From a bacterium (GTDB taxonomy: Bacteria > Patescibacteriota > Minisyncoccia > JAHIHE01), in contig JAUYBG010000010.1 of assembly GCA_030693205.1 (NCBI GenBank), positions 66,059 to 130,058 of the forward strand: a stretch of DNA of 64,000 bases, read 5' to 3'. Numbering within the stretch: position 1 is the first letter of the stretch; each line of letters starts with the position of its first letter. The notes beneath the pieces were generated by a model, which was given only the letters and a program-made list of their open reading frames with translations, ran no database searches and had not been told where the DNA came from. Made by a program: the position numbers and the translations under genes. Shown here in pieces: positions 1 through 60,778 of the stretch.

Positions 1-22
1 TTTTATCGGCAATGGGCCGGTT

Positions 23-463
23 ATGGTCTTTACTTGGAGCGCATTCGCGATCATAGGGATTTTAGGAATGACATATAAGAAATATGAAACTCGATTTGTC
101 ATTGCGAGCGAATCGCCAGCAGGCGGTGAGTGCGGCAATCTCGTGCTTATAAAAAAAATCTTAGGATTGCTTCGTCGCTTCGCTTCTCGCAATGACAGTA
201 AGAGAATCTTGGGACTGGCCGGAGTGGGAATTATTTCTTCGGTTTTTTTCTTTCTCTATACTAATTTCGGCTGGTGGCTGGTTTCCGGAATGTATCCGCA
301 TACTTTGGACGGATTGATCCAGTGCTATATTATGGGATTGCCATTTTTCAAGAATAATTTGATCGGAAATCTGATTTTCGTGCCAATGGCGAGCGGCGCG
401 GCGATTTTAATCGGGAACCTAAAGACGAAGAGTTTTAAATTAAGCATGAAAAAGTTTAGCTAA
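23..463 (+). CDS. Small hydrophobic membrane protein; the reading frame passes through a palindromic repeat copy (98-196)
   Basis: Hydrophobic segments such as AFAIIGILG and GVGIISSVFFFLY. A central block ...VIASESPAGGECGNL...RFASRNDS... is the translation of the repeat element. The start is not certain. Confidence 0.35.
   Translation: MVFTWSAFAIIGILGMTYKKYETRFVIASESPAGGECGNLVLIKKILGLLRRFASRNDSKRILGLAGVGIISSVFFFLYTNFGWWLVSGMYPHTLDGLIQCYIMGLPFFKNNLIGNLIFVPMASGAAILIGNLKTKSFKLSMKKFS
98..196. repeat. Palindromic hairpin repeat, family A (gtcattgcgagcg ... cgctcgcaatgac type), copy 1, lying in-frame inside a CDS
   Basis: The termini gtcattgcgagcg / ctcgcaatgac are inverted. Related copies occur at 9451-9533 and 15438-15530. 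Confidence 0.7.
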
Positions 464-543
464 AAATTGATTTGATTTTCCACTAAAATTTGCTATAATA
501 TTAAGACAGCAATGTCTTTTTTAAAACTTTAATATTAAAAACT

Positions 544-1083
544 ATGGATAAATTCGACATGAGCTATAAGGTTATTACGGATTATAAAAAATTATCGGAA
601 ATAATCAATGCTTATAAAATTCTGGGTAAAAAGATAGTGTGCACGATTGGGTCTTGGGATATGCTGCATATCGGGCATTTACGGTATTTGCATAAGGCTA
701 AAAGCGAAGGGGATATTTTGATCGTCGGCGCGGACAGCGACCGGGCGATCAAGCTTTACAAAAATAATCCTTTGAGGCCGGTGATCCCGGAAGACGAAAG
801 AATGGAAATGTTGAGCTATCAGAATTTTGTGGATTATGTGACGCTTGTTGACGATGTGGACGATAAAGGCGCGTGGCAGATGAAACTTTTGAAAATGGCG
901 CATCCGGATGTATTTGTGGCGGTTAAGGAAAGTTATCCGCCGAATCAGATCAAAGAGATCAAGAAATATGTCAAAACAATGAAAATTCTCAAGCGCCAGG
1001 CGGAAAAAACTTCCACCACGCTTATTATCGAGAGGACATTCAAAAAAAGACTGGAGTATGTTTTATCCAACGCTAAATTATAA
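544..1083 (+). CDS. Cytidylyltransferase-family nucleotidyltransferase, similar to HldE/RfaE domain II and TagD
   Basis: GSWDMLHIGHLRYL matches the (T/H)xGH motif. The block IVGADSDRAIKLYK...RPVIPEDERMEML resembles the ADP-heptose synthase adenylyltransferase domain. Confidence 0.6.
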   Translation: MDKFDMSYKVITDYKKLSEIINAYKILGKKIVCTIGSWDMLHIGHLRYLHKAKSEGDILIVGADSDRAIKLYKNNPLRPVIPEDERMEMLSYQNFVDYVTLVDDVDDKGAWQMKLLKMAHPDVFVAVKESYPPNQIKEIKKYVKTMKILKRQAEKTSTTLIIERTFKKRLEYVLSNAKL

Positions 1084-1091
1084 GATATTTT

Positions 1092-1157
1092 GTCACCCTG
1101 AGCTTGTCGAAGGGTGATTAATTGCGTTTTTCATGGTTCGACAGGCTCACCATGACA
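1092..1157. repeat. Double-hairpin repeat, family B (tcaccctgagcttgtcgaagggtga + tcatggttcgacaggctcaccatgaca)
   Basis: Two adjacent stem-loops with 7-bp stems. A half-copy at 49797-49822 is the reverse complement of the second hairpin. Confidence 0.6.
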
Positions 1158-1174
1158 GACAGTAAAGCCGTATT

Positions 1175-1618
1175 ATGCTTAAAAAAGTTGTTGATCTGAG
1201 GTTCGCGAAAACCAAGGATTATCGGAAAACTCTGGAAACTATCCAGAAAAAAGGCAAGTGTCCGTTTTGTCCGGAAAATTTTATTTATCACAAAAACCCG
1301 ATATTGAAAAAAAACGGCGATTGGCTGATTACCTTGAGCAGCTGGCCGTATAAGAATTCCGAATATCATTTTTTGATCATCAGTTTGCGGCATAAGGAAA
1401 AATTTAGCGCTCTTGAGCTGGCTGATTTTGGGAGCGTAATGAAGTTGGTAGTTTGGGCGGAGAAAAAATTTAAGATCAAGGGAGGGGGACTGGTTTTGCG
1501 TTTTGGCGATACGGCTTATACGGGTTCGACCGTCTGTCATTTGCATTTCCATTTAATCGTGCCAAAGTTAAACAAAAAAACCAAGCGGGCAAATGCGGTT
1601 TGGTTTCCGATAGGGTGA
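1175..1618 (+). CDS. HIT-family nucleotide hydrolase/transferase (histidine triad)
   Basis: HLHFHLIVP is the HxHxHxx motif. An upstream CPFC motif is typical of the GalT/Ap4A-phosphorylase-like HIT branch. Confidence 0.6.
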   Translation: MLKKVVDLRFAKTKDYRKTLETIQKKGKCPFCPENFIYHKNPILKKNGDWLITLSSWPYKNSEYHFLIISLRHKEKFSALELADFGSVMKLVVWAEKKFKIKGGGLVLRFGDTAYTGSTVCHLHFHLIVPKLNKKTKRANAVWFPIG

Positions 1619-1820
1619 AATATTGTGTGTTAAATTTCGGCAGGATTAAATTTTTCTTAAAAGATGTTCGGCTGTGACAATAATTATTATACATTGATTT
1701 AAATTGCCTCACTCGAATTTTGGCGACATGAAACTTTAGATAAATTATTTTGTTAATATTGTCGCCAAAATGCGCTTTTTGCGAAAAATTTAATCCTGCC
1801 GAAACATTATTATTTACTAT

Positions 1821-2690
1821 ATGAAAAAATTTACAAATTCAATTTTAATTATCGGCGAGTTTTCGGTATTTCACAAAGGTTATGCCGATTTTTTGGCTGA
1901 AATGAGTCAGAATAAGCACAGTAAATTTTTTGTCGGGATTTTGGGGGATAATCTGATCAAATATCTGACCGCGCTTGAACCGGATATCAGGAAGGTTTCA
2001 GCGGAAGATGCCGAGCGGATAATAAATTCATTTTTAGGCGCGGAAAAATATTTTACGGTTGAAAAAGACAATTTCGCCGATATTATCAAGGAGATCAGCC
2101 CTGAAAAAATAATCATTTTAAAAGGCGACAAAAGCGAAAATTTCGCGGAAAAATATCTCGGAAATTATAAAGATATTATAGAATATTTTGATATTAGATT
2201 GCGATGGAAAGATTCGCGCGTTCAGGAATTTAAAAAAGAAGTTTCGGATATTCCTCCAAAAGAATTAGCGGAATATCAGGGCTTTATGACCGAAGCTCAA
2301 GCGGAAGCGGAAAAATCCAAATGCTGGTGGCGGCAAGTCGGGGCGGTGGCGGTAAAAGACGGAAAAGTGATATTTAAGGGATTCAACAGGATGATGCCCA
2401 ATGACGATGAATGTTATAAAATCGGCTGTATTCGCGACCCTATCGCTCCAGGAAAAAGCCCGGAGATTTGCAGTGTTACTCATGCCGAGGCAACGATCAT
2501 TTCTTTGGCGGCCAATGAAGGCGCGTCTTTGAAAGGCGCGACATTGTTTGTCACTCACTTTCCTTGTCCGGCTTGCGCGAAATTGGTAGCTTTGTCGGGG
2601 TTTAAAAAACTTGTCTATACCCGCGGTTCATCGGTTTTCGACGGGGAAAGAGTGATGGCCAGCGGGGGAGTTGACATAATTAAGATTTAG
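1821..2690 (+). CDS. dCMP/cytidine deaminase-family zinc deaminase (C-terminal half) fused to a roughly 160-aa N-terminal nucleotidyltransferase-like domain
   Basis: C-terminal half has SVTHAEATII (HAE zinc motif) and HFPCPACAKL (PCxxC). The N-terminal GEFSVFHKGY resembles the G-x-F-x-x-x-H-x-G-H motif. Confidence 0.65.
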   Translation: MKKFTNSILIIGEFSVFHKGYADFLAEMSQNKHSKFFVGILGDNLIKYLTALEPDIRKVSAEDAERIINSFLGAEKYFTVEKDNFADIIKEISPEKIIILKGDKSENFAEKYLGNYKDIIEYFDIRLRWKDSRVQEFKKEVSDIPPKELAEYQGFMTEAQAEAEKSKCWWRQVGAVAVKDGKVIFKGFNRMMPNDDECYKIGCIRDPIAPGKSPEICSVTHAEATIISLAANEGASLKGATLFVTHFPCPACAKLVALSGFKKLVYTRGSSVFDGERVMASGGVDIIKI

Positions 2691-2733
2691 TATTAGTATT
2701 TTGATATAAGAGACCTTAAAAGTCTTTTTAAAA

Positions 2734-3330
2734 TTGAATAAAAATAGAGGAGGAATAGAAACGAAAGAAAAGAAGATTATTAAAAATGGCATACTTGCAG
2801 ATTCATCTATAATATATGGAAAAAAGATGAAATGGTTGCCGCTATTAGCTTATTTGTTTGCCAATATTTGTTTGGTAACAAAGTCTGGAGAAGTCATATT
2901 GGTTTTGACCGAAGAAAGGAAGAGTAAAAATATATACGTTATCCCAGGTGGAGAACTTTTATATTCATTATCGGAAACCTTTAAGACTGCGGTTATAAGA
3001 GAAGCCGGAAAAGAGGAAATGGGCATTAAGCTAAATTCTAAAAAGATAAAAATCTTTGATGCTCAAATAGGGTATCCGATAAAAGGCAGTCCCTATGAAG
3101 AAAAAGGCATAACTTCTGTGATAGTTTCGTATCTGTATTTTATTACAGACAAAGAACTTAAAAAGATCAGAATAAATGCTGTTCCGGAAAAAGGATGTGA
3201 TATCGTAAAAGTTTTAGTGAAACCCGTACCAGACATTTTGCAAGATATTGAAGATGGAAAAATAAATGTATATCCTGCTTTAAAGGAAACATTAGCTAAA
3301 CTGGATTTATTTTTTAGAGAAGGAAATTAA
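2734..3330 (+). CDS. Nudix hydrolase
   Basis: VIPGGELLYSLSETFKTAVIREAGKEEMGI approximates the Nudix box GX5EX7REUXEEXGU. The true start may be downstream, at MKWLPLL. Confidence 0.5.
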   Translation: MNKNRGGIETKEKKIIKNGILADSSIIYGKKMKWLPLLAYLFANICLVTKSGEVILVLTEERKSKNIYVIPGGELLYSLSETFKTAVIREAGKEEMGIKLNSKKIKIFDAQIGYPIKGSPYEEKGITSVIVSYLYFITDKELKKIRINAVPEKGCDIVKVLVKPVPDILQDIEDGKINVYPALKETLAKLDLFFREGN

Positions 3331-3378
3331 CCCTTCTTTTTATTTGAAAAAAAATCTTAAATATGGTAAATTTAAGCA

Positions 3379-3891
3379 ATGAAGAAGAATAACAAAAAAC
3401 TGGAATTTCCGCCGCAAAAAACTTATTTTGTTGCTTCAATGGTATTGATAAACGAAGAAGGACAGCTTTTACTGACCAAAGAAAAAAATAATCGCAATAT
3501 TTGGACTGTTCCGGGCGGGGAAGTTGATTATAAGGCAAAAGAGCAATTTTTGGACGCGGCTATCCGTGAAACGAAAGAGGAGGTTGATGTTTCGGTTGAT
3601 CCTCGCGAAGCGCAATTGATCGATGTCAGGATCTCTTATGCCGAAGGAGATAATCCTTACAAAAAGCATAATATTTTTATTTTGATTGCGACTTGCATAG
3701 CGCATTTTTCCCCAAAGCAAAAAATAACGCTTAAAAGATCTTTTGACGCTTTGGAGCGTAAATATGACGTGAAAGATTTTATTTGGATCGCGCCGGAAGA
3801 GATCTCGAAGAAAAAAATAAAAGTGCATAAAAATTTTATCAAAACGATTCCGATAATCAACCAATGGATCGAAAAATATGGAAAAGGATAA
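3379..3891 (+). CDS. Nudix hydrolase
   Basis: VPGGEVDYKAKEQFLDAAIRETKEEVDV is a Nudix box. Confidence 0.6.
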   Translation: MKKNNKKLEFPPQKTYFVASMVLINEEGQLLLTKEKNNRNIWTVPGGEVDYKAKEQFLDAAIRETKEEVDVSVDPREAQLIDVRISYAEGDNPYKKHNIFILIATCIAHFSPKQKITLKRSFDALERKYDVKDFIWIAPEEISKKKIKVHKNFIKTIPIINQWIEKYGKG

Positions 3892-5353
3892 GCAAAAAAC
3901 AAAATTCGCTTGCGCCGGCGATATCGGCTGGCCGATATATTATTCGGATAGCCTGATCAAGGGTAATCCGGAAAGCGAAATTGGAATTACTACTCTTTGG
4001 ACGCCGGCGAAATTAATCGCGGACAAGATCGACCCAAAGCTTTTTTCCGTGGTCGGTCAGCTCTATTCCAAGGAAGGCATAAATTTTATTTTGCGGAATA
4101 TTCTGGCAAATCCGCGCATTCGCTATATAATTGTTTGCGGCACTGAACTTTCCGGATCCGGCAAAGCGCTGGTGGATTTTTTTGCCAAAGGCGTGGACAA
4201 AGACAATAATATTATCGGCAATGATTTTGCCGCGATCCATAAAGAAATTCCGCTTGAGGCGATCGAAATGGTGAGGAAAAATGTCAAATGCGAGAATCTT
4301 ATTGGCGTCGCCGATGCGGAAAAGATCATCGAAAAGATCAAAAATTATAAGCCGGAAGGAAAACCTTTTTCCGAGCCGCAAACATTTCCTGAACCTAAAA
4401 ATGATCTGGCGGTTTCTTTCCCCGGCGAAGATACCGTGTTTCCTATACGCCATAAATATATCGGCGGAGCGTGGCTTGAAATACTCAAGCATATCCAGCG
4501 CTTCGGTACGATCCGGAATAATTTTTATGGCGGCAGTGTGCGGGAAATTTTTAATATCGCGGCGGTCGTTACGGACGAGGATTCTTTCAATCCGAAAATA
4601 TTTCCTTATATGCAAGTTTGCAAGAAAGAGATCGAGAAATATTGCCAGTATATTTTGAATGGCAATAAAGGGGATGAGGTTTATACTTATGGCGAGCGGC
4701 TTTGGAATTATAAGGGAATTAATCAAGTGGAAGACGTGATCATTCCATATTTAAAAAAATATCCGACTGATCGGGCGGCAGTGGCTATGATGTTTGATCT
4801 GGCGGTTGATCACAAGGCAAGCCGCGCGCCTTGTATGTGTATGGTGCAGGCCGCGACGCTCGGCGATAAATTGAATCTGACCGCGTATTTCCGAAGCCAT
4901 GCGGTGTTTTCCGGTTGGGTGTTGAATGCGTTTGGCTTAAGGCGGTTGCAGAAATATATTGCCGATAAGCTAAATTTAAAAATTGGCACTTTGACCGTAT
5001 TTTCCAATTGCGCGCATATTTACGATAATGAGTGGAGTGCGGCGGAAAAAATAGTCAAAGATCATGGCAATAATTTCGAGGTTATACTGGATCCGCGCGG
5101 ATATTTTATGATCTCGTTGGATAAAAAAGAGATCGTGGCAAAACATTATTCGCCGGATGGAAGATTTTTGGAAGAATTCAGGCAGGACGGCATGATCCCA
5201 AAATCGGCGATGGCGCTGTATGCGAAGCTTGCCGCCGCCAATACTGTTTCCGTAATATCTCACGCTTTTGATCTTGGCGTAGAGCTGGAAAAAGCGGAAT
5301 TCGCGATTAAATTGGGATTAGAATATTCGCAGGATAAAGAATTAAAATTTTAA
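3878..5353 (+). CDS. Two-domain protein: N-terminal MtrA-like domain (tetrahydromethanopterin S-methyltransferase subunit A family) fused to a C-terminal thymidylate synthase (ThyA)-like domain
   Basis: The N-terminal GWPIYYSD...NPESEIGITTLWT...NILANPRIRYIIVCGTELSGSGKAL...NIIGN resembles MtrA. In the C-terminal half, TYGERLWNY, DRAAVAMMFDLA, APCMCMVQ (catalytic Cys in the PCH position), AYFRSHAVFSGWVLNAFGL and NCAHIYDNEW align with ThyA conserved blocks. Confidence 0.6.
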   Translation: MEKDKQKTKFACAGDIGWPIYYSDSLIKGNPESEIGITTLWTPAKLIADKIDPKLFSVVGQLYSKEGINFILRNILANPRIRYIIVCGTELSGSGKALVDFFAKGVDKDNNIIGNDFAAIHKEIPLEAIEMVRKNVKCENLIGVADAEKIIEKIKNYKPEGKPFSEPQTFPEPKNDLAVSFPGEDTVFPIRHKYIGGAWLEILKHIQRFGTIRNNFYGGSVREIFNIAAVVTDEDSFNPKIFPYMQVCKKEIEKYCQYILNGNKGDEVYTYGERLWNYKGINQVEDVIIPYLKKYPTDRAAVAMMFDLAVDHKASRAPCMCMVQAATLGDKLNLTAYFRSHAVFSGWVLNAFGLRRLQKYIADKLNLKIGTLTVFSNCAHIYDNEWSAAEKIVKDHGNNFEVILDPRGYFMISLDKKEIVAKHYSPDGRFLEEFRQDGMIPKSAMALYAKLAAANTVSVISHAFDLGVELEKAEFAIKLGLEYSQDKELKF

Positions 5354-5454
5354 ACAAATCAATTTTATGAGCGCTTTAGGGGTTAGAAGCTTTGACAATT
5401 CTTCCGTTTAACGCTAACATTACTAGTAATATAATAATTTATAAATAATTTTTT

Positions 5455-6036
5455 ATGACTAATTATAAGACCCAGAAGCCAACTGATATTTTAAAAAAAG
5501 ACCACAAGATCATCAAGGATATTATTAAAGTGCTGGAGGCATGCGCCGGTTCGCTTGAGAAAGGCGGAAAATGCGATTTAGACATATTGAACGGCAGTAT
5601 GAATTTGATCAAGAATTTTAATCATAAATATCATCGGCGGACGGAGGAGAGCGTTTTGTTTAAAATCGCTGAGAAAAAAGAAGCGCCTTGGAGCGGAGGA
5701 GATATCAGTTCGATAATCAGAGAGCACGAGGAAGGTGCGGAACAAGTGCGGCGTGTCGCGGATCTTCTCAGGGAATCGGTCGCGGCGGGCATTTTCAGTA
5801 AAAAATCGAAAAAGGCCGTAGTAAAAAATTTATATGCCTATAGCTCGCTTTTGGGCAGCCATCTTATGCAGGAAGAAAAAACCCTATATCCGGTGATCGA
5901 GAGCTTGCTGACCAATCAAGAGAAAAAAAATATTTTACAAAGCTTTGAAAGACTGGCGCAAGAAATGAAGGAAATTGGAGACAAAGAACGATACACAAAT
6001 TCGATCAAAGAGTATAAAAAAAGATTAGCCATTTAA
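5455..6036 (+). CDS. Hemerythrin-like (HHE cation-binding) domain protein
   Basis: LKKDHKIIKD, NHKYHRRTEE and IIREHEEGAE are H/E-rich helices typical of hemerythrin-like domains. Confidence 0.45.
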   Translation: MTNYKTQKPTDILKKDHKIIKDIIKVLEACAGSLEKGGKCDLDILNGSMNLIKNFNHKYHRRTEESVLFKIAEKKEAPWSGGDISSIIREHEEGAEQVRRVADLLRESVAAGIFSKKSKKAVVKNLYAYSSLLGSHLMQEEKTLYPVIESLLTNQEKKNILQSFERLAQEMKEIGDKERYTNSIKEYKKRLAI

Positions 6037-6045
6037 TATTTATTT

Positions 6046-7602
6046 ATGGTTTATAAACCTACTATCGGTTTGGAAATTCATGTTGAACTAAAAACAAACT
6101 CAAAAATGTTTTGCGGTTGCGCCAATAACGCGCTGGAAAAAAGGCCGAATTTTAATATTTGTCCTGTTTGCACCGGCCAGCCGGGAACTTTGCCCTTGGC
6201 AAATAAAAAAGCGATAGAGCTGGTGGTCAGGGCGGCTTTGGCTTTAAATTGTAATATAAATAAATTTTCAAAATTCGACCGAAAAAATTATTTTTATCCG
6301 GATCTGCCGAAAGGTTATCAGATCTCGCAATATGACAAGCCGTTGAGCAAAGAGGGATATCTTGATATTAATATCACAGATTATAATGGTGATATTAATA
6401 AATCCCAAATCCCAAATCCCAAATCCCAAATAAATTCTAAATTACAAACTGCAAAAGTTAAACGGGTGCGAATTACTAGAATACATCTGGAAGAAGATAC
6501 GGGCAAATTATTGCATCCCGATAATGCCGATTATAGCTTGATCGATTATAATCGGGCCGGCGCTCCATTGATGGAATTGGTGACTGAGCCCGACATTGCT
6601 TCGTCCGGCGAAGCGAAGAAATTTTGCCAGGATCTTCAGCTGATCTTTCGTTATTTGGATATTTCCGACGCTGATATGGAAAAAGGGCAAATGCGCTGCG
6701 AGGTAAATATTTCTTTATCAGACAGCGATAAATTGGGAACAAAAGCGGAAATTAAAAATCTCAATTCTTTTAAAGCGGTGGAAAAATCCATTGAGTATGA
6801 GATTGTTCGCCAGAGAAAAGCGCTTACAAAAGGCGAAAAAATTGTTCAAGAAACTCGCGGTTGGGATGAAAACAAAGGCGTAACTTTTTCCCAGCGTGCC
6901 AAAGAAGAAGCTCATGATTATCGGTATTTTCCCGAACCCGATTTGCCGCCGATCGATTTTGAAAAAAACACAGTAGCCGATATTGAAGCGATAAGAAATC
7001 AGCTGCCGGAATTGCCGGAAATAAAAAGAAAAAGATTTTTTGAAGAATATAAATTGCCGGCCAGCGATATTGAAGTTTTGGTTTCAAATAAAAAATTCGC
7101 GGAATATTTCGAGGAAGCCGCTTCCGAATTGGATTCTTGGATCGAAGATAAAAATCTTCCAATAAAAGGCAAAGAGCATCTCCGAATGATCAAAATGGTC
7201 GTTAATTATTTGATTGGCGACATACAATATTTATTGGCGAATTCTAAAACGGAAATAGGTTCTATCAAGATCACGCCGGAAAATTTTGCGGAATTTGTCA
7301 CTCTTGTTTTTGAAGGAAAAATTTCTTCAGCGGCGGCCAAGACGGTTTTGGCGGAAATGTTTGCCAATGGTTCGGATCCGTCGAATATTATTGAAGCAAA
7401 GGAGTTGGCGCAGGAAAGCGGGGAAGATTCTCTGGGCGCGGCGGCGGATGAAGCAATAAAAAATAACCCCGGTCCGGCGGGGGATTATAAGGCAGGCAAA
7501 ACTCAGGCTTTGCAGTTTTTGGTGGGGCAGGTAATGAAGATCAGTAAAGGTAAGGCGAATCCCAAAATTGCAATGGAGTTGCTGAAGAAAAAATTGGGTT
7601 AA
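6046..7602 (+). CDS. gatB: Asp-tRNA(Asn)/Glu-tRNA(Gln) amidotransferase subunit B
   Basis: The N-terminus IGLEIHVELKTNSKMFCGC...CPVCTGQPGTLP is the GatB signature. A C-terminal YqeY-like tail is present. Confidence 0.9.
   Translation: MVYKPTIGLEIHVELKTNSKMFCGCANNALEKRPNFNICPVCTGQPGTLPLANKKAIELVVRAALALNCNINKFSKFDRKNYFYPDLPKGYQISQYDKPLSKEGYLDINITDYNGDINKSQIPNPKSQINSKLQTAKVKRVRITRIHLEEDTGKLLHPDNADYSLIDYNRAGAPLMELVTEPDIASSGEAKKFCQDLQLIFRYLDISDADMEKGQMRCEVNISLSDSDKLGTKAEIKNLNSFKAVEKSIEYEIVRQRKALTKGEKIVQETRGWDENKGVTFSQRAKEEAHDYRYFPEPDLPPIDFEKNTVADIEAIRNQLPELPEIKRKRFFEEYKLPASDIEVLVSNKKFAEYFEEAASELDSWIEDKNLPIKGKEHLRMIKMVVNYLIGDIQYLLANSKTEIGSIKITPENFAEFVTLVFEGKISSAAAKTVLAEMFANGSDPSNIIEAKELAQESGEDSLGAAADEAIKNNPGPAGDYKAGKTQALQFLVGQVMKISKGKANPKIAMELLKKKLG
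6401..6431. repeat. (AAATCCC)4 heptanucleotide microsatellite in-frame inside gatB
   Basis: aaatcccaaatcccaaatcccaaatcccaaat encodes KSQIPNPKSQI. Confidence 0.8.
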
Positions 7603-8606
7603 TTATTTAAAAACCGTTTACAGGTTTTAACGATTTTGCTAAACCCGTTTTTGCTATCCGGTTTTACCCATTTTATTTTTTTATCTTTCTTGAACCAGGT
7701 CATTTGGCGCCGCACGTAATTATGCGTGGCAAATTTTATTAATTCTTTGGTTTTTTCGAGTGTAATTTCGCTTTTCAAATACATTCCGATTTCTCTGTAT
7801 CCGATGCCGCTCATTGCCGGAAGCTTCCATGAATATTTTTTTGCCAGACTTTTTGTTTCATTGACCAATCCGGTTTTAAACATTTTTTCGACCCGATCGT
7901 CGATTTTTTTGTATAATTTTTCACGAGGAATATCAAGCCCAATTTGCAAACAATCAAAAAGCGGCGCGCCTTTTTCTTTTTGAGCGGAAAACGGTTTGCC
8001 GGTAGAGATGGCCACTTCCAGGGCGCGGATTATGCGTCTTTTGTTTTTTTTATCAATATTGATAAAAGCAGCTGTATCTAATTTTTTAAGTTGTTTTAGC
8101 AATACAACAAGGGATTTATTTTCTAATTTTTTTCGCAAAGATAAATTTGGTTTGACTTTTGGAATTTCAATATTATCCACTATCGATGAAATATAAAGTC
8201 CGGTTCCGCCGGTCAAGATCGGGATCTTTCCGCGGCGAGTAATATCGCGGATTATTTTTATAGCTAATTCTTTATATTTAGCAACAGAGAATTTCTCACC
8301 AGGTTCTATAATATCTATTAAATAATGCGGAGTTTTTCTAATTAAAATATATTTTAACTTTTTATTTTTTGATTTTTTGGCGAGTCTGCCGTTGAGGCGG
8401 ATTAGTTTTTTGTCTTGTGGCATTTTAGCGGTTCCAATATTCATTTCTTTATAGATTTGGCGCGAATCTGCCGAAATGATCTCACTATTGAATTTTTTGG
8501 CCAATTTCAAAGCTAGTTCCGATTTTCCGGAAGCAGTGGGGCCGAGGATGATAATAAGAGGTTTTAGGGCTTCTTTGGCATTTAAATTTTTATTTTTAGT
8601 TGACAT
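7599..8606 (-). CDS. miaA: tRNA dimethylallyltransferase
   Basis: P-loop GPTASGKS, and ...ISADSRQIYKEMNIGTAK. Confidence 0.85.
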   Translation of the reverse strand: MSTKNKNLNAKEALKPLIIILGPTASGKSELALKLAKKFNSEIISADSRQIYKEMNIGTAKMPQDKKLIRLNGRLAKKSKNKKLKYILIRKTPHYLIDIIEPGEKFSVAKYKELAIKIIRDITRRGKIPILTGGTGLYISSIVDNIEIPKVKPNLSLRKKLENKSLVVLLKQLKKLDTAAFINIDKKNKRRIIRALEVAISTGKPFSAQKEKGAPLFDCLQIGLDIPREKLYKKIDDRVEKMFKTGLVNETKSLAKKYSWKLPAMSGIGYREIGMYLKSEITLEKTKELIKFATHNYVRRQMTWFKKDKKIKWVKPDSKNGFSKIVKTCKRFLNN

Positions 8607-8647
8607 TTTGATTATAAAAGCTTATTTTATATACAGGAGGACAAAAT

Positions 8648-8926
8648 ATGAACGGAATGATTTTACCAACACTAATTGTTTTAAGTATATTTCTCGTTTT
8701 TCTTAATTTTTCGAAAAAAAACGAGGATATAATAAGCATAATATTGTATGGTATACTTGGTATTTTGAGTATGTATTGGCTTGCTCAAATAATTTATAGT
8801 GATTTGGGGATGCCGCATGAATGGTGGAAGGAGGCTGTAATATTGCCTGGTTTTATGATAGTTTTGATCGTTTGGTCGGCTATTGATGACTTTGGAATTA
8901 TGCTTAAATTATTCAAGGCGTCATAG
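8648..8926 (+). CDS. Small integral membrane protein
   Basis: Three predicted TM helices. No recognisable domain. Confidence 0.3.
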   Translation: MNGMILPTLIVLSIFLVFLNFSKKNEDIISIILYGILGILSMYWLAQIIYSDLGMPHEWWKEAVILPGFMIVLIVWSAIDDFGIMLKLFKAS

Positions 8927-8955
8927 TGCTATTTGTTTCACATCTAGCACTTTTT

Positions 8956-10416
8956 TTATTCTACAAATTTTCCTTCCAGTCCCCAGGCGCTTGCCTGGGT
9001 TATTTTTATTTTAGCGAATTGGCCCACAGTAAGTTTGCCTTCCAAGGACTCCCCTTGGAAGTTTCCAAGGGGAGTCCTTGGAAGGGAGAGAATAGCAATC
9101 CTCACATTTTTAAAAGTTCTTGTTTTTCCGGCTGCAAATCCGCCATCCAATTTTTCTATTAAAACCTCAACTATTTTCCCGACATATTTTTTATTATTCG
9201 CGAGGGCGGTTTTTCTGAGAATGTCATTAAGAAATTCTTTGCGGCGTTTTTTTTCGGTAATTGGCACATTATCTTTCAGCTTTGCCGCGGCAGTGCCGGT
9301 GCGAGGGGAATATTGGGCTAAATAGGCCATGTCGTATTTTACGCTTCGCATGATTTTGGCGGTGTTGGCGAATTGCGCTTTGGTCTCTCCCGGGAATCCG
9401 ACAATAATATCGGTGGAAATCGCGATTGGCGGATTCCAAACACTCGACTTGTCATTGCGAGCGTTAGCGAAGCAATCTCTTGTGCTATTCTTATGTTTTG
9501 AGATTGCTTCGTCGCTTTGCTCCTCGTAATGACGGAATTGGTATGTTTTTTTAATTTTATTTATTAATTTCAGATATTGCACGCTGGTATAGCGCCGGTT
9601 CATTTTTTCGAGGATTTTATCATCTCCGGCTTGGATCGGCAGATGCACATATTCGCAGATTTTTTTGGATTTTGCCATTATTCGGATCAATTCGTCGCTC
9701 ATATCTTTCGGATGGCTGGTAAGGAAGCGGATCCAAAAATTGCCGGGAATAGCATTGATTAATTTTAAGAGCTGGGGAAAAGTAACGGGTTTTTTCTTAT
9801 TCTCTATTGATTTATAAGAATTTACATTTTGCCCCAGTAGTGTGATTTCTTTATATCCTTTGCCGATCAATCTTTTCACTTCTTTGATTATTTCTTTTGC
9901 CGGCCGCGATATTTCCCGTCCCCGGGTATAAGGCACGGCGCAATAAGAGCAAAAATTATTGCAGCCGGTCATAATCGGAATATATGCGCTAAAATTGCTT
10001 TGGTATTGGGGATTGATCCTGAAATAATCGGTATAATCAAAAGCTTTGAATTCTTGTTCGCTCGCATCGGGGTTCAGGAGTTTGAGCAGTTTTTTAAGTT
10101 CGTCGTTCTTGGGACTGGTTAATTCTTTAATATCGATGATCAGGTCAAATTTATCTTTGAGTTTCTTTTTATCCGATTCAAGAAGGCAGCCGGTCAGAAT
10201 AGTTTTGCCGGATTTATTTATTTTCCTGAAATTTATCAGTTGTCCGTATATTCTATTGATGGCGGATTGGCGGACAGAGCAGGAGTTTATTATAAGCAAA
10301 TCGGCTTCATTGATATTTTTTGCCGGCATGATTTTTGCCAATTTCAAGATCGCCGCGATTCTTTCACTATCGCTTATATTCATCTGACATCCATATGTTA
10401 TGATAAAATATTTCAT
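8956..10416 (-). CDS. miaB: tRNA methylthiotransferase (MiaB/RimO-family radical SAM enzyme) carrying two palindromic in-frame insertions
   Basis: MTTase N-terminal domain YGCQMN..., radical SAM motif CNNFCSYCAVPYTRG, and a TRAM-like C-terminus. It is adjacent to miaA. Confidence 0.8.
   Translation of the reverse strand: MKYFIITYGCQMNISDSERIAAILKLAKIMPAKNINEADLLIINSCSVRQSAINRIYGQLINFRKINKSGKTILTGCLLESDKKKLKDKFDLIIDIKELTSPKNDELKKLLKLLNPDASEQEFKAFDYTDYFRINPQYQSNFSAYIPIMTGCNNFCSYCAVPYTRGREISRPAKEIIKEVKRLIGKGYKEITLLGQNVNSYKSIENKKKPVTFPQLLKLINAIPGNFWIRFLTSHPKDMSDELIRIMAKSKKICEYVHLPIQAGDDKILEKMNRRYTSVQYLKLINKIKKTYQFRHYEEQSDEAISKHKNSTRDCFANARNDKSSVWNPPIAISTDIIVGFPGETKAQFANTAKIMRSVKYDMAYLAQYSPRTGTAAAKLKDNVPITEKKRRKEFLNDILRKTALANNKKYVGKIVEVLIEKLDGGFAAGKTRTFKNVRIAILSLPRTPLGNFQGESLEGKLTVGQFAKIKITQASAWGLEGKFVE
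9035..9085. repeat. Near-perfect 21-bp-stem palindrome (ttccaaggactccccttggaa-gtt-tccaaggggagtccttggaa) inside the 3' end of miaB
   Basis: The two arms are exact reverse complements around a 3-nt loop. It is translated in-frame as ...LPRTPLGNFQGESLEG... Confidence 0.8.
9451..9533. repeat. Palindromic hairpin repeat, family A, copy 2, in-frame inside miaB
   Basis: gtcattgcgagcgttagcgaagcaatc...gattgcttcgtcgctttgctcctcgtaatgac. It is translated as ...EAISKHKNSTRDCFANARNDK... Confidence 0.7.
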
Positions 10417-10588
10417 AATATAAAGTAATAATAAGCCGCTTGCCTCGCGTCGATGAGCTTTGCGAGTCGAGGCGGGTAGGTAATGATATGATATTTCATA
10501 AGTTCATTTTAACATAGTTTTATTTATTTTCAATCCAAAAACCCGCTTTTGGCGGGCATTTGGATATTGATAAAGAAAGAACTTTTAT

Positions 10589-12094
10589 TTAGTATAGATC
10601 TTTGGAGTCAGTGCCAGTTCCGGATATTGGACATTTGTCTACTTTTCTCCAATTAGCTGGCACATCGCAGGGTGTGGGAAATACTTTACAGATTCCTTCC
10701 GGACTGATTGCCGGTGTGATCACTTGAATACAGACTGCTGGTTTAGGAGTAATGCTTACAGTAGGTGGAATTTCCGGTATACTTATGTCCGGTGGGATTT
10801 TTGGTATGCCTGTAATAGGCGGAGTTTCACAAGTTCCTTTCCGAATTATTTCCATTCCGGCCGCTTTGGCAAAACACTCATTAGAATAAGTTTTACCGTT
10901 TTTACCGCAAACCGGATTCCATATCTCAATACAAGCGGGGCCAACATTCAAAACAGGAGGGGTATTTGGGGGAGTAACGCCTGTATCGGGAGTAATGATT
11001 CTATTGGGTGGAACCACCACATCGCCCGTGACTATACATATGGGTTGCGAAGGACAGCCTTTTATGTCCGGGCCAAAAACCACTCTTCCGTTTTTGCAAA
11101 AATCAGAGGCAACGCCCCAAGCCGCACAGCCGATTCGCCGCCCTTCCTCGTTTATTTTTTTTAAAATATCCGCTTTTCCCGCCTCCAGTTTTTCTTGCAG
11201 CCGGGGAGTCTCAACTGTCGCGGTTCCCGCTTTTATTCTCGCTTTCAAATTTTCCAATATTTCCAGTTGTGTTTTTTTGACGCCGGAAATTGTTCCGATA
11301 TAGCCTTTAAATTTTTCCTGATCTTCCGGGCTCATTTTTTCCAGATCCCTCTGCAGTCTTTTCAGAGAATTTTCTTCGGCTTTTTGGATTGCTCCTCTTG
11401 CCTGTTCCGGTAATTTTTCTCCCAAATTTTTTAAAACTTCCAAATTTTTGAATTCTTTAAACTGGCTGCCTGCCTGTTTATCCAGGGCGCTATCAAGCTT
11501 TTCGGTTATTTTTTCCGGCCTGTCTTCCAATTTTTGCATTACGTTATTAAATCTTTCCAGCTGCGCGTCTTTTGCTTCTTTTATTTTTGCGAGCGCTTCC
11601 GATGGAACCTGGGTTTCCAATTTTTGAAGAAGTTTTTGGTGCAGGGCTTGCTGGCCGATGAATTTATTAAGGAAAGTTTCCACTTGAGGATTTTCTTTGG
11701 CTTTTTGATTTATTGCGTTGGCTGCTGTTTTCAGCTGTTCGGCTTCTTTTTGGTAATTTTCCGTTGCCTTTTTAATCGCTTCTTGGTTTTTATTTTGTTC
11801 GATCGTTTTTTTCAGTTCCAGTAATTTTTCATTGGCAAATTTCTCTTTTAGCTCAGTTTTGGCGATAGAGCTAAAAGTGAAAAAACTCTGGATTCCTCTT
11901 TGCCAGTTTTTTAGAAAATAAAATGAGCTATCCGGCAGAATTACTGGTTCGCTGATCCCCAGATCGCTTGCTTGTATATTTTCATCGAGATTCACGGCGG
12001 CTGCCGTTTCTGGCGCTGTTTCCTGGGCTAAGGCCGTCAATCCAAAAATAAAAATCATCGCTAAGCTTAAACCGAAGATTTTTAAACTTTTCAT
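10589..12094 (-). CDS. Secreted coiled-coil protein with a C-terminal Kazal-type protease-inhibitor domain
   Basis: Signal peptide MKSLKIFGLSLAMIFIFGLTALA. A long E/K/Q-rich helical region. Kazal signature C-IEIWN-PVCGKNGKTYSNEC-FAKAAGMEIIRKGTC. Confidence 0.6.
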   Translation of the reverse strand: MKSLKIFGLSLAMIFIFGLTALAQETAPETAAAVNLDENIQASDLGISEPVILPDSSFYFLKNWQRGIQSFFTFSSIAKTELKEKFANEKLLELKKTIEQNKNQEAIKKATENYQKEAEQLKTAANAINQKAKENPQVETFLNKFIGQQALHQKLLQKLETQVPSEALAKIKEAKDAQLERFNNVMQKLEDRPEKITEKLDSALDKQAGSQFKEFKNLEVLKNLGEKLPEQARGAIQKAEENSLKRLQRDLEKMSPEDQEKFKGYIGTISGVKKTQLEILENLKARIKAGTATVETPRLQEKLEAGKADILKKINEEGRRIGCAAWGVASDFCKNGRVVFGPDIKGCPSQPICIVTGDVVVPPNRIITPDTGVTPPNTPPVLNVGPACIEIWNPVCGKNGKTYSNECFAKAAGMEIIRKGTCETPPITGIPKIPPDISIPEIPPTVSITPKPAVCIQVITPAISPEGICKVFPTPCDVPANWRKVDKCPISGTGTDSKDLY

Positions 12095-12205
12095 ATTTTT
12101 TTATTGATTAATTATTTATAATTTATATTTTTATTGCTTTAATTTTAGTCTTTTTTAGAAACGCTGTCAATTTTTTCAATGCTAATTTTCATCTTGACCG
12201 TTCAT

Positions 12206-13651
12206 TTAGCTCAAAAAATCAATTATTCCCATTTCAAATTTATCCAGTTCCGGCGTCATTGGCCAGCCATACGAAAGAGGGGTAAGAATGGCGAAGCTTA
12301 TGGCGATTAAAATCAACAACGCGGCGAAAATCTCTTTGTCTTTTTGGTAAATTTTTTCCAGATAAATGCTTAAAAGCAGAATGGCAAACGTGGCCGAGAG
12401 CAGGTAATGATAAAGAAAAGCCACGCGTTTGACCCCGATGAAAGGCAGGATATTGGCAAAATACGCCAAAACCAGCAAATACATAAACGGTGTAATTTTT
12501 TGCCGTTCTTTTTTACTGACTATTAAAATCAAAGTCAGAGCGATCGCTCCAAACGCGAGCCCCCAGAGGACAGGATTTCCGAGAAAATAAATTTTTCCGA
12601 TCTTTTGTCCATTGTCGGGAGTCGGCGCTTGATACCAATAATATATCGGTTTTTTATCAGAAGGCCATTCGTTCCATACACTGCTAAAAGGATGAGTGGC
12701 GGTCAGTCCGGCGCTGGCGCCGTACATTGTGGCATTTAACTCAATGAATTTTTCCCAAAAATTAAGCGGATCGGGAGTATCTTCTTTTCCGTTTTTGAGT
12801 TCGGACTGGAAAGGCGCGCTCATAAACGCGTCGCCCTGTCCGGACTTGGTCAGAAGATCGAAATGGATATAAAACGGGATCAAATAAATCAGGAATCCCG
12901 TCACGAAAATGATCACAATGCCGGCGATAGCTTCTTTGATTTTGATCATTATAGAAACGGCATGATTTTCCGGGCTTAGCCAATCGGACATTTTTCTGCT
13001 AATAATTTTAATCAATAAAATTGTTACAATAACGCCGATTGTCGCGAGTCCTGTCCATTTTATTGAAACAGTTAATCCGAAACTAACGCCGGTTAGCGCC
13101 AGAAAAGCAAACCATTTCTTGCTGAAGATTTTTTCTTTTTGATAAAGCAGGAAAAAGCAGAAAGTCAGGATCTCAAAAAACACGAGGAAGATATCAATAG
13201 CGATTATTTTTGATTGAACCAGGAAGGCGTTATCGAGTAGGATCAGCACTCCGGCGATCAGGGCAATCTGTCTTGAGCGGGTGGCAAGGTACGCGAACCA
13301 CGAAAAAAGCAATACGAATAAACTTCCGAACAAAGCCGGCAGAAATCTTAAGGTGAAAAATAATTGCGAGTTTGCCGCTTCGCCGATTTTGTCAAAGTTA
13401 AACACAAGATCGAAATTCATTAATTTTGCCCAGCCGGCGATGATAAGCTTTCCCAGAGGCGGGTGGATGTCAAAATAATATTGGTGGTTGAAATAAGCCG
13501 CGGCAAATTTACCAAAGTATATTTCGTCAAAAATTGTCTGATTGGGGTAGGCGAGGAAGGCGAAATGAACAATGAAAGCCGATATTGCCAGAATAACGAA
13601 TAGATAGTTTGTTCTGAGAAAATCTTTTAGCCAAATTATTGACAAATGCAT
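12206..13651 (-). CDS. GT39 (PMT/ArnT-like) membrane glycosyltransferase, resembling protein O-mannosyltransferases
   Basis: FDEIYFGKFAAAY...YFDIHPPLGKLIIAGW matches the conserved PMT loop-1 motif. Multiple TM helices. Confidence 0.6.
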   Translation of the reverse strand: MHLSIIWLKDFLRTNYLFVILAISAFIVHFAFLAYPNQTIFDEIYFGKFAAAYFNHQYYFDIHPPLGKLIIAGWAKLMNFDLVFNFDKIGEAANSQLFFTLRFLPALFGSLFVLLFSWFAYLATRSRQIALIAGVLILLDNAFLVQSKIIAIDIFLVFFEILTFCFFLLYQKEKIFSKKWFAFLALTGVSFGLTVSIKWTGLATIGVIVTILLIKIISRKMSDWLSPENHAVSIMIKIKEAIAGIVIIFVTGFLIYLIPFYIHFDLLTKSGQGDAFMSAPFQSELKNGKEDTPDPLNFWEKFIELNATMYGASAGLTATHPFSSVWNEWPSDKKPIYYWYQAPTPDNGQKIGKIYFLGNPVLWGLAFGAIALTLILIVSKKERQKITPFMYLLVLAYFANILPFIGVKRVAFLYHYLLSATFAILLLSIYLEKIYQKDKEIFAALLILIAISFAILTPLSYGWPMTPELDKFEMGIIDFLS

Positions 13652-13652
13652 A

Positions 13653-15428
13653 TTATTTTTTTTCTTCGATTTCTTTTTTAATCATTTCAATGAACTTTTT
13701 AATTTCCAGAGTTTCGGTTTTTTTATCGCCGCGAGTCCGGACATTGACGGATTTGGATTCTATTTCTTTATCTCCAACCACAAGAAGATAGGGGATCTTT
13801 TGCATTTCTCCGGCGCGGACTTTTTTGCCAAGAGTTTCATTGGTTTCGTCAATTTCAACCCTTATGTCATTATTCAGAAGTTCTTTGTGGATTTTTTTGG
13901 CGTAATCCAGGTGTTTTTCAGTGGATATCGGAACGATTCGCGTTTGTACAGGCGCGAGCCAAGCGGGAAAAGCTCCAGCGGTCTGTTCGACCAAAAAAGC
14001 GAAGAATCTATCGAAAGAACCCATTATTGCACGGTGTATTATAACCGGTTTTTCTTTTTCACCTTTTTCATTGATAAAAGACAGATCAAACCTGTCGGGC
14101 GAATAGAAGTCTAATTGGCAAGTTGCTATCGAGTCTTCTTTTCTTGCCACATTTTTGATCTGGACGTCGATCTTTGGTCCGTAGAACGCCGCTTCTCCCA
14201 CCGCTTCCACGAATTTTACTTTAAGTTTTTTTAAGACCGACCTTACTATTTCGGACGATTTCTCCCATAATTCTTTATTCTCGATATTGCCATATTTTTC
14301 TTTATTATTAAAGTCAGGGAGAGACAGCCTGAACCAATATCCTTCGATCCGGAAATCCTCGTAGACTTTTTGGAAAAGGGCGATTACTTTTTCCAATTCT
14401 TCTTTTACTTGCTTTTGAGCGCAATATATATGGGAATCGTTTTGTGAAAAACATCTTGCCCGGATCAGTCCGGTTAAGACGCCTGATCTTTCAAACCGGT
14501 GAAGCAAGCTGAAGTCGGATAATCTTAAAGGAAGGTCCTTATAACTTTTAAGCCCATGTTTGAAAATTATATGATGATGCGGACAATTCATCGGCTTCAG
14601 ATAATATTTTTCTCCCTCGATGTCAATAGGACTGTACATGTCGTCTTTATAATGCGCAAGATGTCCTGAGGTTTTGTATAATCTTTCATGAGTTAAGGCG
14701 GGAGTATAAACGAAACTATATCCGTTTTTTTTCTCCAGCTCATACATATAATCTTCGAGCCTTTTTCTGATAAAAGCGCCTTTGGGAAGCCAGAGAGGAA
14801 GTCCTTTGCCGACTTCTTCAGAAATCATAAATAGATCCAGTTGTTCGGCTAATTTCCTGTGGTCTCTTTTTTCCGCTTCTTCCTGTTGTTTTAAATACTC
14901 TTGAAGAGCTTTTTTGTCCTGAAAAGCTACGCCGTAAATTCGCTGGAGCATTTTATTTTTTTCGTCTCCGCGCCAATAAGCGCCGGCGATTTTGGTGAGT
15001 TTGAAGCTGGTAGCGTCGATTTCGCCGGCAGAATCAATATGCGGCCCGCGGCAAAGATCCACGAAGTTTTCGGTTTTATATACGGTTACTTTCGGTTCTT
15101 TGGCCTCGGTTGCCAGTATTTCTATCTTATATTTTTGCATCGCCTTATTGAAATGAATAACCGCTTCTTCGTGTGAAATTTCTTGTCTTTCAAAAGGCAG
15201 GTTTTTATTGATTATTTTTCGCATTTTTTCCTCCAGTATCGGCAAATCTTCGGGGATCAAAGTTCGCGGCAGATCGAAATCATAATAAAATCCATTTTCG
15301 ATATTCGGTCCTACGCCGAATTTCGCTTCCGGAAACATATCGAGAACGGCGGAAGCTAAGATATGCGCTAATGAGTGGCGTTTGATTTCAATATCATAAT
15401 TTTTCTTATTTTCGTTGTTTTTGTTCAT
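13653..15428 (-). CDS. thrS: Threonyl-tRNA synthetase
   Basis: Editing-domain N-terminus (HSLAHILASAV), a class II core (RGPHIDSAGE..., FRLSLPD...), and a C-terminal anticodon-binding domain. Confidence 0.9.
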   Translation of the reverse strand: MNKNNENKKNYDIEIKRHSLAHILASAVLDMFPEAKFGVGPNIENGFYYDFDLPRTLIPEDLPILEEKMRKIINKNLPFERQEISHEEAVIHFNKAMQKYKIEILATEAKEPKVTVYKTENFVDLCRGPHIDSAGEIDATSFKLTKIAGAYWRGDEKNKMLQRIYGVAFQDKKALQEYLKQQEEAEKRDHRKLAEQLDLFMISEEVGKGLPLWLPKGAFIRKRLEDYMYELEKKNGYSFVYTPALTHERLYKTSGHLAHYKDDMYSPIDIEGEKYYLKPMNCPHHHIIFKHGLKSYKDLPLRLSDFSLLHRFERSGVLTGLIRARCFSQNDSHIYCAQKQVKEELEKVIALFQKVYEDFRIEGYWFRLSLPDFNNKEKYGNIENKELWEKSSEIVRSVLKKLKVKFVEAVGEAAFYGPKIDVQIKNVARKEDSIATCQLDFYSPDRFDLSFINEKGEKEKPVIIHRAIMGSFDRFFAFLVEQTAGAFPAWLAPVQTRIVPISTEKHLDYAKKIHKELLNNDIRVEIDETNETLGKKVRAGEMQKIPYLLVVGDKEIESKSVNVRTRGDKKTETLEIKKFIEMIKKEIEEKK

Positions 15429-15437
15429 AGTATTTTT

Positions 15438-15530
15438 GTCATTCCGAGCGGAGCGAGGAATCTCTTGGGCTCAATAAAATAATAATAAGTCTAAGAGATT
15501 TCTCAGTCGTTGCTACTCCTTCGAAATGAC
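15438..15530. repeat. Palindromic hairpin repeat, family A, copy 3 (intergenic, in the thrS upstream leader)
   Basis: gtcattccgagcggagcgaggaatctc ... gagatttctcagtcgttgctactccttcgaaatgac. Confidence 0.6.
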
Positions 15531-45397: not shown

Positions 45398-45403
45398 AGT
45401 TTA

Positions 45404-49735: not shown

Positions 49736-49823
49736 TGCTAAAAGATTTTGATGTTTGTCTTAAAACCCTTCAAAAAACTCGGTATAACATTAAATTGTCA
49801 TGGTGAGCCTGTCGAACCATATT

Positions 49824-60619: not shown

Positions 60620-60709
60620 ACTTTGACGAAAAAATTGTTTTATTAAGTGATTTTAAGTTTTTTCTAATGGCCATTGATTTAAGCTGAAATATGTTCTTTG
60701 TATCATCCC

Positions 60710-60778
60710 GAACTTGTTTCGGGATTTATCGCGAATTTTCGGCTTGATCTAGATGCTGAAACAAGTTCAGCATGACAA
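60710..60778. repeat. Double-hairpin repeat related to family B (atcccgaacttgtttcgggat ... atgctgaaacaagttcagcatgaca)
   Basis: Two 8-bp-stem hairpins ending in ...catgaca, like 1092-1157. Confidence 0.5.

Follow-up and report, generated by a model that had tools for sequence, protein, structure and literature searches.

The route by which palindromes resembling the Rickettsia palindromic elements (RPEs) enter genes, and the mover of repetitive extragenic palindromes (REPs) of the CGTC type, have been questions since 2000 and 2013. Both are raised by a 64-kb stretch of Patescibacteria DNA (the window; all coordinates refer to its full length) that contains three related hairpin elements. A preliminary description of this DNA had reported them at 98-196, 9451-9533 and 15438-15530, and all three sequences could be read back at these positions as imperfect palindromes with common GTCATT(G/C)CGAGCG...AATGAC ends. 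It had also assigned the first copy to a membrane-protein open reading frame (ORF) and the third to intergenic DNA, and we agree with both assignments: copy 1 lies within a DUF6580 gene that starts left of the window, and copy 3 occupies the spacer between dnaE and thrS. Copy 2 lies within miaB. The copies, their units and the genes around them are as follows (aa, amino acids; nt, nucleotides).

2..463, plus strand: DUF6580 gene for a membrane protein, in which copy 1 lies; the 5' end of the gene is left of the window and the full protein, P0121, has 221 aa.
98..196, plus strand: copy 1, a 99-nt hairpin dimer within the DUF6580 gene; encodes VIASESPAGGECGNLVLIKKILGLLRRFASRND.
98-140: left unit of copy 1, a long variant with a GCC..GGC distal hairpin.
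165-196: right unit of copy 1, inverted, of the 32-nt type GTCATTGCGAGAAGCGAAGCGACGAAGCAATC.
8956..10416, minus strand: miaB, encoding a tRNA methylthiotransferase; contains copy 2 and also the palindrome 9038-9085.
9451..9533, plus strand: copy 2, an 83-nt hairpin dimer within miaB, a minus-strand gene.
9451-9477: left unit of copy 2, GTCATTGCGAGCGTTAGCGAAGCAATC.
9502-9533: right unit of copy 2, inverted, with an ATTAC/GCAAT stem that has one mismatch.
13653..15428, minus strand: thrS, whose 5' leader holds copy 3; copy 3 is also downstream of dnaE.
15438..15530, plus strand: copy 3, a degenerate 93-nt dimer between dnaE and thrS that stops 9 nt short of the thrS ATG, on its upstream side.
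Junction-spanning stretches of the inserts, as examples: TYQFRHYEEQSDEAISK and CFANARNDKSSVWNPPIAISTD.

An exact search of the window with the left terminus GTCATTSCGAGCG returned only positions 98, 9451 and 15438. With two mismatches allowed, seven matches were found against 1.95 expected, and seven or more were reached in none of 100 shuffles. When the plus strand was folded as single-stranded DNA (ssDNA) and compared with dinucleotide shuffles, copies 1, 2 and 3 gave z scores of -3.3, -6.0 and -3.1, each forming a long imperfect hairpin. The closest homologs of MiaB and DUF6580 are labelled Patescibacteria (CPR, candidate phyla radiation), and a Logan contig from SRR13727537 was identical to the window across their overlap.

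Read on the minus strand, copy 2 yields the 28-aa peptide RHYEEQSDEAISKHKNSTRDCFANARND. The closest MiaB ortholog with an empty site (P0003, locus L002, 441 aa) has IKAAFKKQKRDLAISTD where the window has IKKTYQF, the 28 aa and then KSSVWNPPIAISTD; the loop at copy 2 is 32 aa longer than in this ortholog and 36 aa longer than in MiaB of B. uniformis. The alignment with the latter protein (7MJV) ends at query residue 289 and restarts at 329, so that 39 residues stand in place of 3. In a structural model the peptide lies between helix 278-298 and strand 332-339, directly before the conserved STDIIVGFPGET. The predicted local distance difference test score (pLDDT) is <50 at 310-322, in this helix-to-strand loop, and the 7MJV alignment gap falls exactly there. 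Model and alignment together place the insert within the radical-SAM core and not, as had been described, between the radical-SAM and TRAM regions. Helix-to-strand loops of radical-SAM barrels lie at the end opposite the active site, and the inserts of MiaB are located in loops that are predicted with low confidence. The earlier statement that copy 2 adds about 28 aa without breaking the frame is correct as to the peptide and the intact ORF, but the palindrome alone is insufficient: 83 nt is not divisible by 3, and hence it cannot by itself account for the kept frame. A metagenome scan for close relatives of MiaB gave, among the matches listed, only distant ones (≤47% identity).

In an alignment of 24 DUF6580 homologs, nine were without an insert in the inter-helix loop that holds copy 1, including the close homologs P0127 and P0133 (78-80% identity). 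Others carry peptides of the same family in the same loop, either as FVIAS...RNDS and IVIARS...ARNDS or in another frame as SLRGAERRSNL...SLAMT, and further homologs carry sister families there (VILSGAQQ...GMT, VILNEAKRSEES...). In this clade the length of MiaB orthologs varies between 441 and 618 aa, and several palindrome families fill at least five insertion hot spots in them; the MiaB and DUF6580 loops have each been colonised by several such families. A conservative peptide screen detected such dimers in 9 of 120 homologs and in none of the reversed controls, and placed the element family at three different positions of MiaB. Because close MiaB and DUF6580 orthologs lack them, the inserts are, on sequence comparison, acquired: P0003 for MiaB and P0127 and P0133 for DUF6580 are without the segments, where native sequence would have shown the same peptide. 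Both genes of the window therefore contain what defines an insert of the RPE type, namely an in-frame palindrome within an intact full-length ORF that is absent from orthologs. That the segments are native coding sequence, or palindromes that arose by chance, is thus barely credible. Such a view could appeal to the varying length of these loops in all relatives, but it is refuted by the close orthologs without the segments; in addition, the same 26-32-nt arms are shared by many phyla and by unrelated genes and occur outside coding DNA as well as within it, and the copy-number and folding statistics exclude chance.

In each element one hairpin unit occurs twice, in inverted orientation and with the heads facing outward. 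Two sets of arms were used to describe it, 350 arms gathered with a loose pattern for the forms of the unit and 377 arms for the counts of heads and tails. The unit reads 5'-Y-GTC, ATTGC, GAG, a variable mini-hairpin (often GC-GNA-GC), GA(A), GCAAT and C(C/T)N, which amounts to a GTC head, a 5-bp ATTGC/GCAAT stem, a purine internal loop of GA(G) and GA(A), and a distal GC-GNA-GC mini-hairpin. Its length ranges from 26 to 44 nt, and the commonest forms are a 26-nt arm, GTCATTGCGAGCGNAGCGAAGCAATC, and a 32-nt arm, GTCATTGCGAGGAGCGNAGCGACGAAGCAATC, in which the N in the middle of the GNA loop is the sole freely varying base. Alternative distal parts are self-complementary yet unrelated in sequence (GCTGAC-GAA-GTCAGC, GTCCGTCA..TGACGGAC). 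The base 5' of GTC was C in 204 arms, T in 158, A in 10 and G in 5, that is, a pyrimidine in 362 of 377 (96%); copies 1-3 of the window all read TGTC. Among the tails CCA was the most frequent (153 arms, 41%), followed by CTC (112, 30%), which the left arms of the window copies carry, and CCC (38). The fetched loci contained 101 heads-outward arm pairs, and single units occur too. The sequence d(GCGNAGC) is a classic DNA mini-hairpin of unusual stability, and in DNA tandem G·A pairs are likewise stable; these properties point to a single-stranded DNA form of the unit.

The same design is found in the window and in syntenic relatives with the stems ATTCT, ATCCT, ATTCC, ACCCT, ATGGT and ATCCC. 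Since these stem variants were first found by a search that demanded a complementary stem, decoys served as a control, and they gave 0 matches compared with 339. There are eight different 5-bp stems, all self-complementary. They begin with AT (ATTGC/GCAAT, ATTCT/AGAAT, ATCCT/AGGAT, ATTCC/GGAAT, ATGGT/ACCAT), with the exception of ACCCT/AGGGT, which has C in the second position. Compensatory double changes were seen at five of seven pairs, and the observed covariation was reached by none of 500 shuffles. In copy 3 the left unit has the stem ATTCC/GGAAT and the right unit ATTTC/GAAAT. Each unit self-pairs while the two mismatch each other, which favours folding within each arm, as judged from the sequences, rather than as one long hairpin. 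The arms of one element often differ in their distal hairpin, and the central spacer is frequently a third hairpin; a single long hairpin as the relevant structure is disfavoured by copy 3 and by these unlike distal hairpins of paired arms.

Terminal inverted repeats of at least 11 nt, a size of 64-130 nt and many copies are features that the elements share with a classical miniature inverted-repeat transposable element, an internally deleted insertion sequence that a DDE transposase moves via its terminal inverted repeats. The flanks argue against this origin. Direct flank identity for k = 1 to 8 was at or below chance in 98 elements, so that no direct target-site duplication of 1 to 8 nt was present in them, and in 92 of the 98 the flanks were inverted Y..R. 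The arms are moreover structured hairpins with compensatory changes that also occur singly, and a search between distant inverted arms turned up no DDE transposase. We regard this explanation as very unlikely.

The arm motif was found in more than 120 stretches of IMG/VR viral contigs and in more than 120 stretches of one-genome-per-species bacterial contigs from many phyla. Hosts among the matches listed include Bradyrhizobium, Sphingomonas, Rickettsiales, Gamma- and Deltaproteobacteria, Chloroflexi, Bacteroidota, Cyanobacteria, Planctomycetota, Sporomusa, Helicobacter and Patescibacteria. With many phyla and viral contigs among its hosts, the element family is not lineage-specific. The suggestion of a comparable mobile hairpin element in this lineage is accordingly retained for the hairpin element and dropped for its being particular to the lineage; mobility is suggested by presence and absence among orthologs and by copy number. 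The element is not confined to three sites: it is met again in the window, in its syntenic relatives and well outside these, and one syntenic relative (L326, 17 kb) holds about 20 units, six of them within miaB. Rfam searches of the window and of five repeat-rich loci, with gathering as well as E-value thresholds, gave no family for the element. The exact DNA words of the element were not found in the searchable literature, and a literature search joining Patescibacteria with palindromic or selfish elements returned nothing relevant. That literature has no account of such elements densely and repeatedly occupying permissive loops, in frame, in the housekeeping proteins of Patescibacteria, and as far as it goes this is new. 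It extends the in-frame behaviour of RPEs to a second, unrelated group with reduced genomes.

Some loci hold several units. The dnaE-thrS spacers of the relatives L003, L326, L328 and L329 carry dimers, ATTGC dimers occurring in four relatives at varying distance from thrS, and in L326 (4596-5504) eight units of three stem families lie within 900 nt; this spacer is an insertion hot spot. Two IMG/VR contigs (L336, 3052-3440; L338, 4415-4803) contain tandem arrays with three ATTGC dimers in 389 nt, and these arrays are an open frame with repeated VIASAAKQS...LLAMT. In a Chloroflexus locus (L132) arms follow one another at a 51-nt period.

We compared the units with the CGTC-tagged REPs, a set of four families (CGTC-1 to CGTC-4) from several phyla that have a CGTC or TGTC head, stems that start with A-T and CCA-like tails, occur mostly as inverted dimers and have no known dedicated transposase (Di Nocera 2013, PMC3733652). 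That survey equates CGTC-1 and CGTC-4 with Rickettsia RPE-6 and RPE-4, and CGTC-1 also with Neisseria dRS3, and it gives in-gene, in-frame CGTC copies with their peptides; Patescibacteria were not covered by it. The two classes are alike in the unpaired CGTC/TGTC head, the A-T stem start, the CCA-like tail and the occurrence of both inverted dimers and singles. Both are also spread over several phyla, with some copies read through in genes, and both are without a known dedicated transposase. They differ in that the stem of the published units runs without a break over 8-9 bp and closes in a loop of 4-5 nt, whereas here a 5-bp stem is followed by a conserved GAG/GA(A) purine internal loop and a variable distal mini-hairpin. 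The encoded peptides differ as well (VIPAKAGI, VIAGLDPAIH and VIPWLDHGI there; VIASEAKQS, SLRG..LAMT and ..RND here). A continuous stem of 8-9 bp is absent from the units of the window except the one at 60753-60776, which belongs to a further set of relatives. The preliminary list was right in its three copies and incomplete, since three more relatives of the element are present:

1092..1156, plus strand: sister-family dimer in the spacer between a cytidylyltransferase-like gene and a HIT gene; GTCACCCTGAGCTTGTCGAAGGGTG ... inverted GTCATGGTGAGCCTGTCGAACCATG.
49797..49820, plus strand: sister-family solo unit, intergenic; TGTCATGGTGAGCCTGTCGAACCAT.
60698..60776, no strand assigned: intergenic dimer of the continuous 8-bp-stem class; its right unit, inverted, is TGTCATGCTGAACTTGTTTCAGCATC.

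In the last of these the left unit has a degenerate head (GTATCATCCCGAACTTGTTTCGGGAT), and the unit 60753-60776, with an 8-bp stem and a 5-nt loop, was the only one seen in that form. Because the Y-GTC head, the AT-starting stem, the C-rich tail and the heads-outward dimers match, the elements of the window fit an interrupted-stem branch of the superfamily formed by CGTC-tagged REPs and Ssn-related motifs (SRMs), which includes dRS3/NTS, RPE-4 and RPE-6. The RPE-like reading of the preliminary description is supported on two counts, a superfamily shared with RPE-4 and RPE-6 by way of PMC3733652 and the in-frame acquired copies, and the comparison is stronger than an analogy. Like RPEs, and RPE-4 and RPE-6 in particular, the elements are palindromic repeats that add peptides in frame to the housekeeping proteins encoded by a reduced genome, with a CGTC-type head and an overall design that we set alike through the statement in PMC3733652. 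Unlike RPEs, which belong to one genus, the present family spans many phyla, and its stem and loop sequences are different.

Inverted hairpin doublets with an unpaired head by the foot of the stem, the lack of target-site duplication and the occurrence of single units would also fit the REP/REPIN model (PMC3733652), in which the elements are moved by a REP-associated tyrosine transposase (RAYT), an IS200/IS605-like Y1 enzyme of the HUH type. REPINs (Bertels & Rainey 2011) are likewise inverted REP doublets of a non-autonomous, ssDNA type without target duplication. However, they combine a GTAG head with a Y1 transposase, whereas the head here is Y-GTC and not GTAG, and the genes that have been shown to accompany the hairpin class are GIY-YIG Ssn genes. 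The published survey (PMC3733652) detected no RAYT with CGTC units at its sides. In our own data no recurrent transposase cluster lay beside arms at 240 loci, where 1,091 ORFs within 600 nt gave phage-like clusters only, and no Y1_Tnp domain was present in the 28 window ORFs that were scanned, about half of the total. Movement by a RAYT is in our judgement quite unlikely.

A different enzyme is suggested by the Ssn family. The Neisseria NTS (CGTCATTCCCGCGMAVGCGGGAATCYRG) and the related SRM hairpins are substrates of single-domain GIY-YIG Ssn nucleases, which cleave them exclusively in the form of ssDNA and cannot do without the conserved upstream head (Chenal 2025, PMC11893778). An SRM lies nearby in 71% of ssn homologs, and the arrangement NTS-ssnA-NTS resembles an insertion sequence (PMC11893778). 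The present elements share with these motifs an HGTC head joined to a hairpin and, at loci outside the window, units that flank ssn genes on both sides. In a locus from a Planctomycetota metagenome-assembled genome (MAG; L182) a 96-aa GIY-YIG ORF lies exactly between two ATTGC arms, and its product is 44% identical to Neisseria SsnA (E 2e-26); this Ssn homolog within a dimer is a direct physical tie of the hairpin class to an Ssn-family GIY-YIG gene. Units of the GAG..GA class also stand beside ssn homologs in Planktothrix and Spirosoma (L330, L340). When Ssn-homolog loci were taken from plasmid records regardless of repeats, eight of eight had Y-GTC hairpins within 200 nt. Most of them had units on both sides, and in Rhizobium, Novosphingobium and Aeromonas single inverted units bracket the gene. 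On the Azospirillum lipoferum 4B plasmid AZO_p3 (L332, 3889-4395) an Ssn-type GIY-YIG gene with hairpin dimers lies between sufB and sufC; such an insertion into a conserved operon is what would be expected of a mobile cassette. The window itself contains one candidate for a hairpin enzyme:

29179..29433, plus strand: stand-alone GIY-YIG nuclease gene, 84 aa.

This protein is 80-90% identical to more than 100 clusters, including ones from very different CPR lineages (Moranbacteria, Parcubacteria, Portnoybacteria) and even a MAG labelled Bathyarchaeia, while the best homologs of MiaB outside the near-identical contig of the source organism itself reach only 65-73% identity. The difference suggests horizontal spread of the GIY-YIG gene or unusually strong constraint on it.

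We consider it probable, with some reservation, that the copies are non-autonomous, selfish, REP-like ssDNA hairpin dimers of the CGTC/SRM superfamily, likely served in trans by an Ssn-type nuclease, and that those now seen in genes are in-frame survivors. For this account the movement and the role of Ssn are what we infer from the observed anatomy, spread, empty sites and L182 gene. The units would fold into hairpins wherever the DNA is single-stranded, at replication forks or on its entry into the cell, and a sequence-specific GIY-YIG nuclease of the Ssn type, acting in trans, would recognise them and nick beside the Y-GTC head. Copies would spread through cutting and rejoining or by way of repair, in either case without creating a duplication. 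In a gene-dense Patescibacteria genome many insertions would be expected to hit genes, and the survivors would be those that keep the frame, avoid the stop-bearing ...AATGAC frame and sit in tolerant loops, to persist as additional translated loops some 28-35 aa long. A TGA occurs in one of three frames at the ...CGCAATGAC end, and the in-gene copies observed accordingly end in ..RND or ..AMT.

A number of observations weigh against this account. The window has no clear Ssn gene: its GIY-YIG protein shares just 30% identity with SsnA, is without the C-terminal extension and has UPF0213 proteins as its best match in the PDB, its gene has no flanking hairpin units either in the window or in L334, and no Ssn gene (cd10448-type) was found in the 64 kb or in about 90 kb of syntenic relatives. 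The published SRM pattern, HGTCWYN(0-2)YYVSBRHN(0-5)WNVSBRGN(0-2)RNCYNB, matches no unit of this class; it gave 0 matches in the window, L003 and L326-L329, compared with 9, 6 and 4 in the Neisseria, Rhizobium and Azospirillum loci. Cleavage of these units by Ssn is therefore extrapolated from the published motifs. Only one Ssn gene was found within an ATTGC dimer; a search of viral contigs for further arm-gene-arm arrangements, with a spacing of 340-370 nt, gave five long arm-to-arm intervals that contained dimer arrays or unrelated ORFs but no ssn. Ssn nucleases cut DNA but are not known to transpose anything. The in-gene dimers have GTC-to-GAC lengths of 83, 95, 98, 104 and 104 nt, mostly 2 mod 3 in this small sample and so mostly not multiples of three. 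The unit that was inserted therefore probably includes flanking bases or was adjusted later. Finally, translation of the inserts as extra peptide loops is inferred from the intact ORFs.

The elements could instead be kept by selection as structures of benefit to the host, either as transcript-stabilising or terminator hairpins or as ssDNA-restriction sites that limit recombination of incoming DNA, a role proposed for NTS and SsnA in Neisseria. NTS and SsnA do modulate natural transformation (PMC11893778), the majority of REPs are situated 3' of genes and are likely to be transcribed (PMC3733652), and the dnaE-thrS spacer has dimers in five related genomes. However, such roles do not account for copies inside genes: a terminator function is hard to reconcile with the positions in miaB and the DUF6580 gene. 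Moreover, presence varies among close orthologs, different families share one loop, copy 3 is decaying and no Rfam family matches. A host function appears unlikely.

An extension of the selfish-dimer account can be put forward only tentatively, as a possibility with more against it than for it: that the GAG/GA(A) interrupted-stem dimers are an undescribed, bacteria-wide branch of Ssn-associated elements, with an arm-ssn-arm autonomous form of about 380 nt as in L182. If this were true, GIY-YIG Ssn proteins would be the missing mobilising enzymes of CGTC-type REPs and RPE-like elements, and the elements would be a main source of lineage-specific peptide loops in Patescibacteria housekeeping proteins. 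The interrupted-stem unit type is in any case new and missed by the published SRM pattern; SRM searches overlook the class, so that published counts are too low. For annotation, the elements inflate and split protein predictions in CPR genomes, as the MiaB orthologs illustrate, and create spurious small ORFs. They might also be used as permissive-loop markers for protein engineering.

A second palindrome in miaB, at 9038-9085 (minus strand), has perfect 23-nt arms, CCTTCCAAGGACTCCCCTTGGAA and TTCCAAGGGGAGTCCTTGGAAGG, and is unrelated to copy 2. It encodes SLPRTPLGNFQGESLEG in the TRAM domain, with pLDDT <50 at 445-457, occurs once in the window and is without a GTC head. Orthologs carry related FPxxLGNxxxK peptides at its site and at others, and it therefore looks, from sequence, like another in-frame palindrome family. 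The only Rfam matches, to microRNA hairpin models, fell on this palindrome and were dismissed as chance. The spacer after the HIT gene holds an inverted repeat at 1635-1804 with 28-nt arms that are 93% complementary and 114 nt apart (TTTCGGCAGGATTAAATTTTTCTTAAAA and TTTTGCGAAAAATTTAATCCTGCCGAAA), partly overlapped by a second inverted pair at 1551-1651. A motif resembling TT(C/T)ACCCCGT(T/G)A(A/G)A(A/T)A is present at 29144, 40848/40902, 48834/48928, 63723, 47258 and 19487, often as inverted pairs in spacers. It lies directly upstream of the GIY-YIG gene, likewise upstream of the homolog in L334, and may act as promoter or terminator or belong to a further repeat.

Near 44 kb the cumulative GC skew reaches a maximum and the dominant gene strand flips (about 42000-47300), and two tRNA genes lie near the peak at 42035-42106 (plus strand) and 47167-47250 (minus strand). 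This region may be a replication terminus or origin. The ORF at 3878-5353 (491 aa) joins MtrA-like, thymidylate-synthase and pterin-binding (DUF4346) domains, a fusion that is also present in the relative L328.

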